42,271 nt of DNA from a virus (taxonomy: Duplodnaviria > Heunggongvirae > Uroviricota > Caudoviricetes): IMG/VR virus record IMGVR_UViG_2718218308_000003, positions 1-42,271 of that record, one strand, 5' to 3'. Below are positions 15,305-29,280 of the stretch, one piece after another. Numbering within the stretch: position 1 is the stretch's first letter; each line of letters starts with the position of its first letter. Made by a program: the position numbers and the translations under genes. The notes beneath the pieces were generated by a model. It was given only the letters and a program-made list of their open reading frames with translations, was not told the DNA's origin and did not search any database.

Positions 15305-15479
15305 GTGTGCGTTTCTCCTGCTCTATCCTGTTTGCCTGACTGACCAGCAAGGGAATTTCACTGATCGGCATATTCAGCAATTCGAAGGGATTAATGCGCC
15401 AGTAGCTGGCGCAGTCAAAGAAGCGATCAGTGAGGTATTCAGCCGTCAGGCCTGGAGGAAAAAACCAGCCACAAGCCAC
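15297..15479 (-). CDS. Minus-1 frame extension of the tail assembly chaperone, expressed by programmed frameshifting (G/GT-like)
   Basis: Overlaps the upstream ORF in the -1 frame. The T_TTT_TTC slippery site is at 15458-15464 (minus strand). The ORF has no ATG or Shine-Dalgarno of its own and ends overlapping the tape measure start. Confidence 0.45.
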   Translation of the reverse strand: MACGWFFPPGLTAEYLTDRFFDCASYWRINPFELLNMPISEIPLLVSQANRIEQEKRTHG

Positions 15480-19498: not shown

Positions 19499-19576
19499 AA
19501 AACCTCCTGTGCCCGCCAGAACGCGGGCACAAAAAAACCGCATTACGCGGCGTGCTGTATTACGTAAAAAGACTAA

Positions 19577-25487: not shown

Positions 25488-26012
25488 ATGTACTCCAATG
25501 AAGAAGCCACCGACATAGCCTCCTCCATTCATCGTGAAACTATTTTCATCTACCCAGTAATGAATTCTTTGTAGAGTTGTGATCAATACAACTCACTAAT
25601 GGAGAGGCTTGTCCAACACGTTGGACAAGTTTCCTGTTTGATTTACTGGACACTATAGAAGGACAGAATGCCTTCATCACTCGAATAACATCAATTAAGG
25701 AGGTTCAACATGTTTCATTCCACAAATCATCAGGCTGTAATTATGGCTGCATCAGCTTGTGCCACAGACCTTTTCCGCTTCACTTTAAGCCTGATTCATT
25801 TCTACCTGACCGGCTCGCCTCTATCTTTTTAATCCCCGCTTTATCCAAATTGCATTGCCAGAATGCCGACAACAGACTGACATTCAAATCCTGACTACCT
25901 CCAATAGTCTGACCGTACACCTATATAGTTTTAATTTTCATCAATCCATTTAACTATCGTTTAATTGTTGTCACATAGGATTCTGCCGTTTTTAACAATG
26001 CAGGATAATAAG

Positions 26013-26306
26013 ATGAAAAAAATGTTGTTTTCTGCCGCTCTGGCAATGCTTATTACAGGATGTGCTCAACAGACGTTTACTGTTGGAAACAAACCGACAG
26101 CAGTAACACCAAAGGAAACCATCACCCATCATTTCTTCGTTTCGGGAATTGGACAGGAGAAAACTGTTGATGCAGCCAAAATTTGTGGCGGCGCAGAAAA
26201 TGTGGTTAAAACAGAAACCCAGCAAACATTCGTAAATGGATTGCTCGGTTTTATTACTTTAGGCATTTATACTCCGCTGGAAGCACGTGTGTATTGCTCA
26301 CAATAA
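26013..26306 (+). CDS. bor: Bor-family outer-membrane lipoprotein (lambda Bor / Iss-like serum-resistance protein)
   Basis: 97-aa protein MKKMLFSAALAMLITGCAQQTFTV... with a lipobox (LITGC); it closely matches lambda Bor as I recall it. It sits antisense between the lysis genes and the packaging genes, as in lambda. Confidence 0.85.
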   Translation: MKKMLFSAALAMLITGCAQQTFTVGNKPTAVTPKETITHHFFVSGIGQEKTVDAAKICGGAENVVKTETQQTFVNGLLGFITLGIYTPLEARVYCSQ

Positions 26307-26337
26307 TTGCATGAGTTGCCCATCGATATGGGCAGCT

Positions 26338-26799
26338 CTATCTGCACTGCTCATTAATATACTTCTGGGTTCCTTCCAGTTGTTTTTGCATAGTGATCAG
26401 CCTCTCTCTGAGGGTGAAATAATCCCGTTCAGCGGTGTCTGCCAGTCGGGGGGAGGCTGCATTATCCATGCCGGAGGCGGTGGTGGCTTCACGCACTGAC
26501 TGACAGACTGCTTTGATGTGCAACCGACGACGACCAGCGGCAACATCATCACGCAGAGCATCATTTTCAGCTTTCGCATCAGCTAACTCCTTCGTGTATT
26601 TTGCATCGAGCGCAGCAACATCACGCTGGCGCACCTGCATGTCAGTAATTGTCGAGTTCGCCAGCTTCAGTTCTCTGGCATTTTTGTCGCGCTGGGCTTT
26701 GTAGGTAATGGCGTTATCGCGGTAATGATTAACAGCCCATGACAAGCAGACGATGATGCAGATAACCAGAGCGGAGATAATCGCGGTTACTCTGCTCAT
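26338..26799 (-). CDS. rz: Rz i-spanin (inner-membrane spanin component)
   Basis: 153 aa with an N-terminal transmembrane helix and a coiled-coil periplasmic domain; directly downstream of the endolysin gene. Confidence 0.8.
26397..26579 (-). CDS. rz1: Rz1 o-spanin (outer-membrane lipoprotein) embedded in rz in the +1 frame
   Basis: 60-aa ORF wholly inside rz, with a signal peptide, a lipobox (VVGC) and a proline-rich mature region ([15 protein letters not shown]). Confidence 0.75.
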
Positions 26800-27272
26800 A
26801 CCTCAATCTCTCTGACCGTTCCGCCTGCTTCTTTGAATTTTGCAATCAGGCTGTCAGCCTTATGCTCGAACTGACCATAACCAGCGCCCGGCAGTGAAGC
26901 CCAGATATTGCTGCAACGGTCAATTGCCTGACGAATATCACCGCGATCAATCATCGGTAAAGCGCCACGCTCCTTAATCTGCTGCAATGCCACAGCGTCC
27001 TGGCTTTTCGGAGAGAAGTCTTTCAGAGCAAGCTGCTTACGATAAGCATCCCACCAGCGTGAAAGAAGCTGATAACGTCCGGCGGCTGTTGATTTTAGTT
27101 TTGGGTTTAGTGTGACAAGTTTGCGAGGATGATCGGAGTAATCAGTAAATAGCTCTCCGCCTACAATGACGTCATAACCATGATTTCTGGTTTTCTGCCG
27201 TCCGTTATCCGTTCCTTCTGACCATGCCACCATATCGAGGAAAGCTTTACGCTGGGAATTTAGTGCCTGCAT
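26796..27272 (-). CDS. Endolysin, lambda R-type lytic transglycosylase
   Basis: The 158-aa protein is near-identical in pattern to lambda R as I recall it ([43 protein letters not shown]...). Confidence 0.85.
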
Positions 27273-27275
27273 AAA

Positions 27276-27602
27276 TTACTCCTTCGAGCTACCAAATTTG
27301 TTACCGATTACTCGCATTGCAGCCCCACGAATTGCATCGACACCAATCAGCCCAACACCGCCACCAATGGCAACAGAAAGAGATTTAGGCCATCCGACAT
27401 ACTCAAGAGCGGATGCAAAAGTCAGCGTCAGAGCACCACAGAGCAAAATCTCGAGCGTTTTTCGCTTCCACCCACCACCACCGCCAAAATAGGCAATGCG
27501 CAATCCAGCCATAACAATCGACATAATCACTGCGCCCAGTGGTGTGTCTCCACGCCACCAGCTCTGGACCAACTCCAGCCAGGTATTTGGGTTATGAGGC
27601 AT
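27276..27602 (-). CDS. Holin (lambda S-like, class I)
   Basis: 108-aa protein with three predicted transmembrane segments and a charged C-terminus, immediately upstream of the endolysin gene. Confidence 0.7.
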   Translation of the reverse strand: MPHNPNTWLELVQSWWRGDTPLGAVIMSIVMAGLRIAYFGGGGGWKRKTLEILLCGALTLTFASALEYVGWPKSLSVAIGGGVGLIGVDAIRGAAMRVIGNKFGSSKE

Positions 27603-27744
27603 TTGTAGTTATCTCTCACCTCGCTGAAACAGCAGGTGCAAATTGAGGGAACATCATGTACCGCAAATCAGAAGCGGAAACGTCAAAGAAGCCGAACCAA
27701 TGGATAACTGCGGAATAGGCCTAGACCAACGAATCCCCAGCCCC

Positions 27745-27776
27745 AGAAACGACAAAACCCGCTCGATGGCGGGTTT
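27745..27776 (-). terminator. Rho-independent terminator on the late-transcript strand upstream of the holin gene (candidate tR'-like attenuator)
   Basis: Hairpin AAACCCGC/GCGGGTTT (27755-27776); on the minus strand it is followed by TTTTGTCGTTTC. Confidence 0.45.
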
Positions 27777-27895
27777 AAGCTGTGTGGCGAAGTAACCACT
27801 CTTAACACGATACAATTTTTTTTGCGTACGCGTTAGTTTTTTATTACTTTACTTTTTGATACTATCGGCGTGGTTACAAACAAGGAGAACAGCAA

Positions 27896-28158
27896 TGAGT
27901 AACTACTTGGAAGTTAAGAGAAAAATTGGTCAATATGCATGTGTTACTCGGTGGGGTTTTCCCTGTGCCGAGCGTGAAATCACTTTGATACAAAATGACA
28001 TTAACTCCGCGATTCAAAGTGGTAAAGTTATAAGTCGTAGCATGCTCCAAGGCATTATCAGCCGTCATGTTCCCAATACCCATTTCTTAATCACCGACAG
28101 TGTGGACAACTCTGATCTTAACACTGCATTAAGAATGCTGGCGCCAAAACAAAAATGA
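27896..28158 (+). CDS. Hypothetical small soluble protein (87 aa), first gene of an antisense cargo cassette
   Basis: The ATG at 27896 is preceded by AAGGAGAA. AT-rich. Its stop overlaps the start of the next ORF (28155), which suggests translational coupling. Confidence 0.45.
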
Positions 28159-28895
28159 ATAATGATGTGTTTCAGATCAGCCCCGACGAAGTAACGTCGG
28201 AGCTGATTTCTGCAAAGGAAAGATTTTTACGTGGTATTCAGCCATACTTGTGTAATGGTATATCAAACCTTGCTGACCTACATGAAATTCAGCAGCATGC
28301 TTCAAAATATTTTAATACCGCTGTTAAATTAGTTCAAAAAGTAGATTTATGTAAACTGGATGACAATAAGACATTTGCCATTTCCTTAGTTGGAGACTGT
28401 CGAGCGGTTCTGGAAACTTATTTAGAATACTACGACATGATGGTGTCAAACATTAAATGCCTAGAAATTGATCCAAACAATATTGTACTGTATAGCAAAG
28501 ATGGTCTATCAAACCTCCAAAGAATCATTAAAAAGTATTCATCAAAAGATATTTACACACCTATTATTGCTGAATTTGAGTCTCGAAATTTGCCAATCGA
28601 TGGATTTACTATAGGCACACCAATGAATTGGAAATTAATTGTCACTGCCATTATTGGATTTTTAAGTTTTTGTATTTTTTTATCAATTACGCTGCTAATA
28701 CCAGATTTGAATGAATTTCAAAAGAAAATGATTTTCTCTTTATATTTCATGAGTGCGGCCGTTGGAATCTCGCCATTCATTGCAAATAATATAAAGGTCA
28801 ATGGGAAGATGGCATTTCGTGGTTCGGAATTCAAAGTATCTGCTGTTGGTGGTTTAGCAGCATTGATTGTTTCTTTCATCATCCAAGTAATTTAG
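28155..28895 (+). CDS. Hypothetical protein (246 aa) with a soluble N-terminal domain and two or three C-terminal transmembrane helices; candidate effector or superinfection-exclusion protein
   Basis: Hydrophobic segments LIVTAIIGFLSFCIFLSITLLIP, MIFSLYFMSAAVGISPFIA and AVGGLAALIVSFIIQVI in the C-terminal third. AT-rich codon usage. Antisense to the phage late operon. Confidence 0.55.
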   Translation: MNNDVFQISPDEVTSELISAKERFLRGIQPYLCNGISNLADLHEIQQHASKYFNTAVKLVQKVDLCKLDDNKTFAISLVGDCRAVLETYLEYYDMMVSNIKCLEIDPNNIVLYSKDGLSNLQRIIKKYSSKDIYTPIIAEFESRNLPIDGFTIGTPMNWKLIVTAIIGFLSFCIFLSITLLIPDLNEFQKKMIFSLYFMSAAVGISPFIANNIKVNGKMAFRGSEFKVSAVGGLAALIVSFIIQVI

Positions 28896-28897
28896 CA

Positions 28898-28917
28898 AAG
28901 AGGCCCTAAGGCCTCTT
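28898..28917. terminator. Stem-loop in the 26-bp gap between the convergent cassette and Q genes (possible bidirectional terminator)
   Basis: AAGAGGCC-CTAA-GGCCTCTT, a perfect 8-bp stem; weak T tracts on both sides. Confidence 0.4.
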
Positions 28918-28921
28918 ATAA

Positions 28922-29278
28922 TCATAGCATTGATAGCACACCACTAACAAAACCTAATGCTGTTTGCATATCTTTTCTAATTGTCCCATCAGAACACTTA
29001 CGCTTCTTCGCAATGGTGCGTAATGAAATACCAATAACAAAGTGGGCAATAACTAACTCATATTCTTCTTGTTTATATTTACGTAACCGTGCGACACAAC
29101 CGTCTATCATGATCCCTTCATCATCATCACACTGGAGGCGAGACTTTTTGCCATGAGGTAAAAGCCCCTTGAAGCCTGCAGCTATCGGTTGCCAGTCCAC
29201 ACCACTGTTATCTGCTGCCGCCCATGCTCCCCAGCGGTCCAAAACTTCATACATATCACGCATCAACCTTCTCCACAA
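28922..29278 (-). CDS. Late-gene antiterminator Q
   Basis: 118-aa protein with motifs I associate with the phage antitermination Q family (LDRWGAWAA, IAAGFKGLL, QCDDDEG); located upstream of the lysis genes. Confidence 0.65.
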   Translation of the reverse strand: MWRRLMRDMYEVLDRWGAWAAADNSGVDWQPIAAGFKGLLPHGKKSRLQCDDDEGIMIDGCVARLRKYKQEEYELVIAHFVIGISLRTIAKKRKCSDGTIRKDMQTALGFVSGVLSML

Positions 29279-29280
29279 AA

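Follow-up and report, generated by a model that had tools for sequence, protein, structure and literature searches.

The window analysed here, that is, the whole 42,271-nucleotide stretch of the virus record IMGVR_UViG_2718218308_000003, reads as a lambda-like E. coli prophage with its late genes on the minus strand. Pfam bears out the gene calls for bor, Rz/Rz1, R, holin and Q made in an initial annotation from the letters alone, and the lysis genes are identified by Pfam Phage_lysis and Phage_holin_3_1, by a PHROG holin match and by the RefSeq names in identical genomes. The genome of E. coli D217-5 (NZ_CP076268) matches positions 27200-29400 at 100% identity. The bor gene is cargo, antisense to the late operon. 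The mechanical Q open reading frame, which begins at a TTG, extends to 29278. The features of the region are the following:

26013-26306, plus strand: bor lipoprotein gene (Pfam Lambda_Bor, E = 6e-31; GC 0.415)
26313-26338, plus strand: bor 3' stem-loop of 11 pairs including one G.U, loop CGAU, beginning 7 nt past the bor stop
26338-27602, minus strand: lysis genes Rz (26338-26799), Rz1 (26397-26579), endolysin R (26796-27272) and holin S (27276-27602)
27745-27776, minus strand: predicted tR', intrinsic terminator of the short late-promoter transcript (terminator scan, fold, relatives)
27796-27807, minus strand: TGTTAAGAGTGG, proposed sigma-dependent pause element, invariant in 40 of 40 module variants
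27807-27817, minus strand: two overlapping -10-like hexamers of the proposed pR', AATTGT (27817-27812) and TATCGT (27812-27807)
27824-27845, minus strand: candidate Q-binding element and UP-like tract, made of an A-tract (27845-27837) and CTAACGCGTACGC (27836-27824)
27857-27894, plus strand: putative cassette expression signals read by eye, extended -10-like TGaTACTAT (27857-27865) and Shine-Dalgarno AAGGAG (27882-27887)
27895-28895, plus strand: two-gene cargo cassette, orfA (27895-28158, 87 aa) and orfB (28155-28895, 246 aa), GC 0.364
28898-28917, no strand assigned: Q/cassette hairpin, perfect 8 bp, in the 26-nt gap between the converging orfB and Q stops
28922-29263, minus strand: antiterminator Q of the QuuD type, 113 aa from ATG (Pfam Phage_antitermQ, E = 2e-45)

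Inspection of the window found hairpins at all three places where the initial annotation had described them, and comparison with dinucleotide shuffles puts them far from chance: perfect hairpins of 8 bp or more number 13 in the window, at 9 distinct sites, whereas the shuffles give 4.3 +/- 2.1, and the probability of a perfect hairpin is about 0.002 in a random 31-nt interval (at least 7 bp) and about 0.0003 in a random 26-nt interval (at least 8 bp). Their folding z-scores range from -2.3 to -3.5, and all three have a GC-rich stem of at least five pairs closed by a short loop (11 pairs with one G.U, 8 and 8), with at least five G-C pairs each. Only the hairpin at 27755-27776 passes the terminator scan, which the bor and Q/cassette hairpins fail. 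The U-tract that follows the stem is clear at 27755-27776 on the minus strand, is weak at 28898-28917, with roughly 4 U per 8 nt whichever strand is read, and is poor after the bor hairpin, whose tail is UAUCUGCA. An Rfam search of 26250-29000 returned no family match, even at E = 1. We consider it likely, with a probability of about 0.8, that this is a lambda-like prophage in which the three hairpins have different and ordinary jobs, namely the 3' stem-loop of bor, the terminator of the cassette, and tR' with the late promoter pR' adjoining it.

The proposed late promoter module

The hairpin upstream of the holin gene, AAACCCGC-N6-GCGGGTTT at 27755-27776, is followed on the minus strand by TGTCGTTTCT down to 27745; its stem pairs 27776-27769 with 27762-27755 around the loop CAUCGA, and the tail of the RNA is UGUCGUUUCU. 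It is retained in relatives with different loops and sometimes with different stems, nearly always followed by a T-run, and it occupies the position of the annotated tR' of phage 21, some 30-60 nt from the predicted transcription start. From these features it is read as tR', the terminator overridden by Q. Its earlier description as a terminator thus holds, and since tR' is what Q exists to override, it is not an insulator of cargo. The Adams 2021 supplement lists no 3' end near 5772xx, the site of tR' in the K-12 prophage DLP12.

tR' is the last element of a module of about 90 bp (27745-27836, minus strand) that consists of a repeat, the -10-like hexamers, the invariant TGnTAAGAGTGG and the terminator itself. 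We compared 40 variants of this module. The downstream hexamer keeps its A2 and T6 in all 40, the remaining positions being variable, and the upstream one is mostly TATTGT, TATTAT or TATCGT. None shows a match to a -35 element, an A-tract being found upstream instead, and a promoter scan made no call at this place. The existence of two -10 candidates makes the start site of the proposed pR' uncertain by about 5 nt. The invariant TGnTAAGAGTGG reads TAAGAG or AAGAGT followed by GG; TAAGAG does not have the usual T at position 6 unless the register is AAGAGT. We propose that TGTTAAGAGTGG, which is similar to TAAGCTG of phage 21 and to AACGAT-GGG of lambda, is the pause element and that transcription starts at about 27806-27800. 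Two other assignments were rejected: TGnTAAGAG as an extended -10 promoter would leave no space for a pause element ahead of the terminator, and TTACTT or TCACTT as pause elements do not conserve A2 and T6.

The sequence CTAACGCGTACGC contains the repeat ACGC-GT-ACGC and the palindrome GCGTACGC, and we infer that it is a candidate Q-binding element. Its core GC-GT.CGCAAAA is conserved in every cassette type and becomes GCGCGGTCCGC or ACGTACGT where Q has clearly diverged, as in phage 1720a-02, whose Q of 126 aa has a different C-terminal part, and in the QuuD of DLP12. The repeat lies in the interval between -35 and -10, an arrangement shared with phage 21 and with lambda.

The distribution of the module bears on the position of the promoter. 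The cassette is missing from phage 1720a-02, and there the block GTTAAGAGTGG starts 38 nt past the Q stop, such that the module abuts Q. Unrelated cassettes put the module 654 to 2998 nt past Q in several genomes and in 80 IMG/VR loci; in this window it is the orfA/orfB cassette that separates them. The module accompanies Q whatever follows, be it a lambda-type holin, essD, or a methylase and then stx2, and in every locus examined it stands ahead of the holin or of other late genes. Among complete E. coli genomes about 19% have it, including that of K-12, whose prophage DLP12 has the order quuD, antisense nmpC, module and essD. Literature searches for the module sequence found nothing relevant. 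Because the module abuts Q in the cassette-free relative and the layout matches that of phage 21, pR' most probably adjoins the cassette, which would then be outside the late transcription unit. The initial annotation, which could not place the late promoter with confidence, had suggested that it may lie inside or beside the cassette, and it is the second of these options that agrees with the conserved module.

Alternatively, pR' might lie at the 3' end of Q or within the cassette, the module being merely a leader followed by tR', in which case late transcripts would cross the cassette antisense and silence it on induction. A promoter-like TTGTTA-18-TATGAT with an upstream TG does overlap the Q stop (28950-28921, minus strand), and the module has no -35 match. 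However, chance alone would give 7.8 promoter-like sites and the scan gave 8, the 3' end of Q varies between cassette types so that the 28950-28921 site is not conserved, and every cassette would need to bring its own late promoter. In addition, the module has invariant -10-like and pause-like elements with a spacing like that of phage 21, and abuts Q where the slot is empty. We consequently regard this alternative as improbable.

With the promoter in the module, pR' would occupy about 27798-27845, immediately upstream of tR' and between it and the cassette. In lysogens of lambda, 21, 82, phi80, P22 and Stx phages, pR' is constitutive and its transcript is terminated at tR' (PMC7547250). By the mechanism that we propose, pR' in a lysogen would make an RNA of about 50-60 nt ending at tR'; after induction, Q would bind the repeat upstream of the -10 and load onto polymerase paused at TAAGAG(T)GG, and the Q-loaded polymerase would pass tR' into S, R, Rz and beyond.

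Cargo units and their hairpins

Relatives have either the whole cassette or none of it, and the stretch 27857-27894 ahead of orfA is specific to it, being common to loci L006 and L008-L014 and absent from other cassettes. The hairpin at its other end, AAGAGGCC-CTAA-GGCCTCTT with 8 of 8 pairs, is read as its terminator, probably usable in both directions since a modest U-tract flanks it on both sides. Of 24 unrelated cassettes, 15 have a perfect GC-rich hairpin of another sequence within about 40 nt of the Q stop, and the analogous hairpin of DLP12, between quuD and nmpC, has a cargo-sense RNA 3' end mapped to it in K-12 (574367; Term-seq, PMC7815308 supplement). The whole unit 27857-28917 would bring its own promoter, ribosome-binding site and terminator; the hairpin would keep cassette transcripts from entering Q antisense and may also halt unmodified polymerase leaving Q.

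The bor/Rz hairpin has the core TGCCCAT-CGAT-ATGGGCA (26317-26334), and its arms extend to 11 nt (26313-26323 and 26328-26338) with a single mismatch, which is a G.U pair in the bor-sense RNA only; the fold is predicted to be more stable in the bor sense (-20.6 kcal/mol) than in the late sense (-16.9 kcal/mol). The junction at 26200-26450, comprising the 3' end of bor, the gap and the 3' end of Rz, shares at least 98% identity with phages lambda and 21, and lambda has a perfect 11-bp form of the hairpin. In 80 viral-contig bor loci the protein is 100% identical throughout and the gap nearly identical. One locus (L098) has a compensating C-G in the stem, and covariation in the stem is without statistical significance in this set of 7 distinct sequences of low diversity (92 of 500 shuffles reach the observed score). 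Of the more diverged homologues, 7 of 8 have an unrelated hairpin at the equivalent site, with a clear U-run after at least three of them, and the bor of E. albertii retains the core with a different outer stem. Because diverged bor genes of other genera bear unrelated hairpins at the same site, the structure belongs most likely to the 3' end of bor, as a leaky terminator or a stabiliser of its mRNA. In K-12, where the DLP12 copy of the stem is mutated, the main bor-sense RNA 3' end lies about 125 nt past the hairpin, within rzpD; a second site, possibly Rho-dependent, lies further into rzpD (578204, supplementary file 2). The bor gene would be a self-contained cargo expressed in the lysogen, its mRNA ended or stabilised just after the stop codon. 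A further hairpin is found upstream of bor at 25604-25633.

A third convergent junction is found at the far end of the late operon, between an acyltransferase gene (5580-6728) and a tail-fibre assembly gene (7008-7619). The initial annotation had ascribed a short perfect palindrome to each convergent junction of the late region, which is right for bor/Rz and cassette/Q; this third one has none, and contains instead a hairpin of 12 pairs, G.U pairs among them, with a tail that is rich in U when read in the cargo sense (6773-6803, z = -5.0). The cargo units have a GC content of 0.33-0.42 against 0.50 for the window and are for this reason regarded as insertions. That the cargo genes form separate units bounded by hairpins, as initially suggested, is upheld.

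It could be thought that the junction hairpins act as DNA, as recombination joints or protein-binding palindromes for cassette exchange, and not as RNA terminators. Two breaks in homology to other prophages do coincide with hairpins at module boundaries, one being at the tR' hairpin (27754) and the other at the stop codon of Q, and the last residues of Q co-vary with the cassette. Nevertheless, the hairpin sequence differs between cassettes, so that they share no recombination site. Many cassette hairpins are followed by a clear T-run in at least one sense, and the one in DLP12 coincides with the mapped RNA 3' end. As for the bor stem, only RNA can accommodate its variant, by forming a G.U pair. 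A role at the DNA level is therefore slightly less probable still than a promoter within Q or the cassette.

The palindromes had initially been viewed as barriers that insulate antisense bor and the cassette from Q-antiterminated late transcription, and this we find very hard to sustain. They do lie exactly in the gaps between converging genes, and the cargo units are bracketed by hairpins if the one at 25604-25633 is included. Yet Q-loaded RNA polymerase resists intrinsic terminators by construction (Shi 2019, PMC6606751). The bor/Rz hairpin cannot block Q-modified polymerase, because the HNH, terminase, head and tail genes lie beyond it on the same strand and would be silenced; the polymerase would rather cross it in antisense toward the packaging and structural genes. 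The sequence of this junction is the same in lambda, whose late transcript passes bor, and late transcription from the conserved pR' module would never reach the cassette, which is upstream of that module. It is more likely that the hairpins end the cargo genes' own transcripts, which reverses the direction of insulation.

Least probable of all is that the palindromes are functionless products of chance, since, although the bor hairpin is conserved only inside a block at least 98% identical and conservation among close relatives says little, the probabilities for the two gaps (about 0.002 and 0.0003) are low, and diverged bor loci, like unrelated cassettes, have unrelated hairpins of their own at the corresponding positions.

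The slot between Q and the proposed pR'

The slot occupied by the cassette is empty in 1720a-02 and filled elsewhere by 24 alternative cassette types, in which 50 of 51 open reading frames are antisense to Q. They fall in our sample into about 16 protein-level families, most of them uncharacterised, orfA/orfB included, and known systems among them include Kiwa, PD-Lambda-5, an NsnA/PD-T4-2-like system, TIR+caspase and PDC-M53A. The cassette of this window has no Pfam domain match, and in PHROGs it matches families of unknown function only. orfA has no PADLOC match, and the marginal partial match of orfB to DndH (E = 0.003, 12.8 bits) is not credible. orfB has an N-terminal helical bundle and three transmembrane helices; Foldseek with the AlphaFold model (mean pLDDT 71) gave no match in the PDB with E < 0.9, and a search for homologues of the cassette found only 7 clusters, all named hypothetical.

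More tentatively, the joint of about 10 nt between the stop of a QuuD-type Q and the late promoter might be an unreported hotspot at which self-contained anti-phage cassettes are swapped, nearly all antisense to Q and expressed only from their own promoter in the lysogen, where converging early transcription could shut them off on induction. We rate this as possible rather than probable. If true, it would be a built-in way to stop an abortive-infection cassette from killing its own phage. Literature searches for a defence hotspot between Q and the holin found nothing relevant. The slot would be a practical place to seek new anti-phage systems, the hairpins themselves being ordinary. For this common type of Q, the late promoter and terminator are here given a predicted place, in a module that has never been annotated though it is present in DLP12 of K-12 and in some Stx2 phages. 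Cargo downstream of Q would not automatically be within the late, Q-dependent transcript, which bears on whether a prophage toxin, porin or defence system is activated by induction or expressed in the lysogen.

Comparison with known systems

The closest layout is that of phage 21, annotated in record OL657228 in the order Q stop, -35, QBE, -10, TSS, pause element TAAGCTG at +2 and terminator from +3 to +50. The module shares this order and compactness, with the repeat between -35 and -10, a TAAG pause-like start and the terminator within about 50-60 nt, and Q is a distant relative of the phage 21 Q seen in PDB structures 6p18 and 6jnx. By contrast, this match has an E value of just 0.003, the repeat is ACGC-GT-ACGC here and TGAGCA twice in phage 21, there is no TTGACA -35, the pause-like sequence is TAAGAG(T) instead of TAAGCT, and a 1.1-kb cassette lies between Q and the promoter.

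With lambda, the window shares the bor/Rz stretch, hairpin included, and AAGAGT-GG-TTACTTCGC here is similar to AACGAT-GGG-TTAATTCGC, with which the late transcript of lambda begins. The Q of lambda, however, belongs to a different protein family, and no cassette separates it from pR'. The lambda 6S RNA is 194 nt long, against about 55 nt predicted here.

DLP12 has the same slot with antisense cargo, the pR'-tR' module upstream of the holin and a 31-nt Rz/bor gap, and RNA 3' ends map to hairpins between its quuD and nmpC; it differs in that its cargo is a porin gene disrupted by IS5 and that its bor hairpin and Q-binding-like repeat are mutated. The lc porin of PA-2 has an arrangement like that of quuD, nmpC and essD in DLP12.

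The slot also resembles the defence hotspots of P2 and P4 (Rousset 2022, PMC9122126), which have a fixed position and many alternative small anti-phage systems. It belongs to another phage family and to another position, between Q and pR'; its strict antisense orientation is not a known feature of the P2/P4 slots, and the window's own cassette matches no known defence family.

Finally, morons are reportedly, after Hendrix and colleagues, autonomous promoter-gene-terminator units inserted between phage genes. The promoter of the cassette is here only predicted and the U-tracts are weak, but bor, the orfA/orfB cassette and the acyltransferase are all low-GC units with a hairpin after each, and the cassette, with a GC content of 0.364 against 0.50, is found in some relatives and missing from others, in which the genes that flank it are neighbours.

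Gene order of the prophage and hairpins in its late region

The window is a lambda-like E. coli prophage whose late genes occupy the minus strand. Read in the late sense, the arrangement is as follows.

28922-29263, minus strand: Q (Pfam Phage_antitermQ, E = 2e-45)
28155-28895, plus strand: orfB, gene 2 of a two-gene cassette
27895-28158, plus strand: orfA, gene 1 of the same cassette
27276-27602, minus strand: holin gene S
26796-27272, minus strand: endolysin gene R
26338-26799 and 26397-26579, minus strand: Rz and Rz1
26013-26306, plus strand: bor (Pfam Lambda_Bor)
beyond bor in the late sense, to about 7008, minus strand: HNH, terminase and structural genes

The phage 21 Q of solved structure is a distant relative of the Q found here (E = 0.003), and two human E. 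coli isolates have chromosomes that match the stretch tested (27200-29400) at 100% identity. The integrase gene (39650-40813) adjoins a tRNA-Thr(CGU) gene (both within 39650-40903), thrW, which Shigella serotype-converting phages use as their attachment site. Positions 1-6728 carry an O-antigen-type acyltransferase gene (GC 0.33), a DDE transposase and a second integrase, the latter accompanied by an RNA match to int-alpA, and the early-left region contains an Rfam match to the STnc100 sRNA (36491-36713, plus strand; 49.1 bits for a gathering score of 47).

All three inverted repeats reported in the initial annotation, in the bor/Rz gap, in the cassette/Q gap and upstream of the holin gene, are present at the positions given there. 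Compared with its dinucleotide shuffles, the window is about threefold enriched in perfect hairpins of 8 bp or longer (13 versus 4.3 +/- 2.1). A random interval of the size of the bor/Rz gap has a chance of about 0.002 of containing a perfect hairpin of 7 bp or longer, and one of the size of the cassette/Q gap a chance of about 0.0003 for 8 bp or longer; the folding-energy z-scores of the hairpins are between -2.3 and -3.5. Of the three, only 27755-27776, on the minus strand, passes a terminator scan, being the sole one with the needed T-run. We read the three as known kinds of element, probably terminators of cargo genes and a late-gene terminator. The window has four other perfect hairpins of 8-9 bp that are not within long ORFs or are at the edge of one (15395-15413, 19508-19531, 35096-35116 and 38114-38135). 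Two are in the late operon; a third is in a region of divergent ORFs near 35100, which may be the immunity region; and the fourth, in the block of plus-strand ORFs at 36531-40813, has A- and T-runs on its flanks.

The bor hairpin

The bor/Rz hairpin is lambda's own sequence and no speciality of this prophage, since the junction including the gap (26200-26450) matches phage lambda, phage 21 and some 190 further phage records at 98% identity or more, and lambda carries the stem as a perfect 11 bp, GAGTTGCCCAT-CGAT-ATGGGCAACTC. Because the whole block is conserved, close relatives say little about this hairpin. An A-to-G change in the window's stem gives a G.U pair in the bor-sense RNA and an A.C mismatch in the late-sense RNA (-20.6 versus -16.9 kcal/mol), and one locus has a compensating C-G; these two hints fall short of statistical significance. 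Bor genes that have diverged further (61-71% identity; from Salmonella, Buttiauxella, Pectobacterium, Enterobacter, Izhakiella and Photobacterium) have an unrelated strong hairpin after the bor stop in seven of eight cases, with a clear U-run in at least three of these seven, and in E. albertii the stem core is kept with a different outer stem and downstream DNA, so that the hairpin belongs to bor and not to Rz. Most simply, it would be the terminator or 3' stabiliser of bor. We rate it as a leaky terminator because its U-tract is poor and because in the K-12 prophage DLP12 (locus L088), where the stem is mutated, Term-seq places the main bor-sense 3' end about 125 nt past the hairpin, inside rzpD/rzoD (genome 578444, minus strand), with a second, possibly Rho-dependent site listed deeper in rzpD (PMC7815308).

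A further terminator-like hairpin (25604-25633) has a perfect stem of 10 bp, or 13 pairs when G.U is counted, and separates the HNH gene start from the bor promoter region. The plus strand gives the stronger fold (-19.7 kcal/mol, z = -4.8), and a T-rich tail follows there. No plus-strand gene was seen upstream of this hairpin, which may insulate bor on its upstream side. Assemblies of unrelated taxa such as Cohnella, Pedobacter, Flavobacterium and Kitasatospora also contain bor genes with 92% identity to that of the window (loci L173-L197), several on low-coverage contigs of about 48.4-48.5 kb, which looks like contamination by lambda control DNA.

A cassette slot between Q and the proposed late promoter

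The joint between Q and the late promoter is a hotspot. Among close Q relatives (loci L002-L087), the slot corresponding to window 27850-28921 holds at least 24 alternative cassettes by k-mer clustering, or about 16 protein-level families by eye, all of low GC, and 50 of 51 slot ORFs run antisense to Q. These cassettes include the known or candidate defence systems Kiwa, PD-Lambda-5 and PDC-M53A, together with an NsnA/PD-T4-2-like system with a cytosine methylase and a caspase with a ThsB-like TIR protein; most slot cassettes have no match to a known defence family, nor has that of the window. The latter is one unit (GC 0.364 versus 0.50), with its own putative extended -10-like TGaTACTAT, Shine-Dalgarno, two genes and hairpin, and is unchanged in prophages with different lysis genes; OrfB is predicted to be a helical bundle with three transmembrane helices, without a fold match. 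The last ~10 Q residues (window 28922-28960) differ between cassette types and are the same among loci sharing a cassette (Q of L001-L007), so the left edge of exchange seems to lie inside the Q 3' end.

In fifteen of the 24 cassette types, a perfect GC-rich hairpin, different in each, is found no more than about 40 nt from the Q stop; further types have imperfect ones by eye. T-runs follow some of these hairpins in the Q sense, others in the cassette sense and others in both; in the window the U-tracts are modest on both strands. This recurrence of structure without sequence in unrelated cassettes argues for a terminator function at the convergent junction. In DLP12, Term-seq 3' ends fall at both hairpins of the quuD/nmpC gap (genome 574367 and 574476, minus strand), the cargo-sense end 574367 being at the equivalent of the window's cassette/Q hairpin (PMC7815308). 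No description of the slot or of the late control sequence was found in the literature, of which our coverage is incomplete; the quuD-nmpC-essD arrangement has long been part of the K-12 annotation. A promoter-like site overlapping the Q stop (28921-28950, minus strand), TTGTTA-18-TATGAT with TG upstream, faces the cassette in antisense orientation and is not conserved among relatives.

The late control region

In the Stx2 phage 1720a-02, Q is directly followed by ...GCGCGGTCCGCAAAAAGTATGTCAGTATGTTAAGAGTGGTTACTTCGCCACACAGCTTAAACCCGCC-loop-GCGGGTTTTTTT, and the window has this block, which extends from CTAACGCGTACGC through the hairpin and T-run, at 27836-27745 on its minus strand. The block is present in every related locus, separated from the Q stop by 654 to 2998 nt of unrelated DNA, and stays with Q irrespective of the DNA that follows. 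It occurs in DLP12 between nmpC and essD; of 5426 complete E. coli genomes, 1008 have it, annotated in none. GC-GT.CGCAAAA and TGnTAAGAGTGG are invariant among its 40 distinct variants. The proposed pR' has two overlapping -10 candidates, 27812-27807, with A2 and T6 kept in all 40, and 27817-27812, TATTGT-like in most; it has no -35 match. We place this putative promoter at about 27798-27845, with a start near 27800-27806, and the hairpin 27755-27776 as the probable tR', because the block abuts Q in 1720a-02, recurs in relatives, contains conserved elements, and has a phage-21-like layout and a lambda-like start. The proposal of a terminator-like hairpin upstream of the holin gene stands; pR', which had been suggested to lie inside or beside the cassette, would be beside it, between cassette and tR'. 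The predicted leader RNA can fold a small hairpin, GUGGU...GCCAC (27781-27799, minus strand).

The hairpins had been thought to insulate antisense cargo from late transcription, a mechanism wrong in direction and target: Q-loaded polymerase resists hairpin terminators (Shi 2019, PMC6606751), late transcription must cross the bor hairpin to reach the structural genes, which share its strand and come after bor, and the cassette, upstream of pR', is outside the late unit. A plausible role of the hairpins is to terminate the transcripts of the cargo genes themselves and to halt unmodified polymerase as it comes out of Q. A third cargo gene, the acyltransferase (5580-6728), also ends in a hairpin with a U-rich tail.

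The analysis is useful in that it places pR' and tR' for this Q type and recognises the cassette slot. The block layout mirrors the late control region of phage 21 (curated record; Shi 2019, PMC6606751), recorded as Q stop, -35, two-repeat QBE, -10, TSS and pause element TAAGCTG at +2, with a terminator feature at +3 to +50; CTTAA, kept just before tR' in most block variants, also precedes the phage 21 tR'. The predicted transcript start, AAGAGT-GG-TTACTTCGC, resembles that of lambda, AACGAT-GGG-TTAATTCGC. In a lysogen, the late promoter would yield an RNA of about 50-60 nt, analogous to lambda 6S RNA and StxS (PMC7547250).
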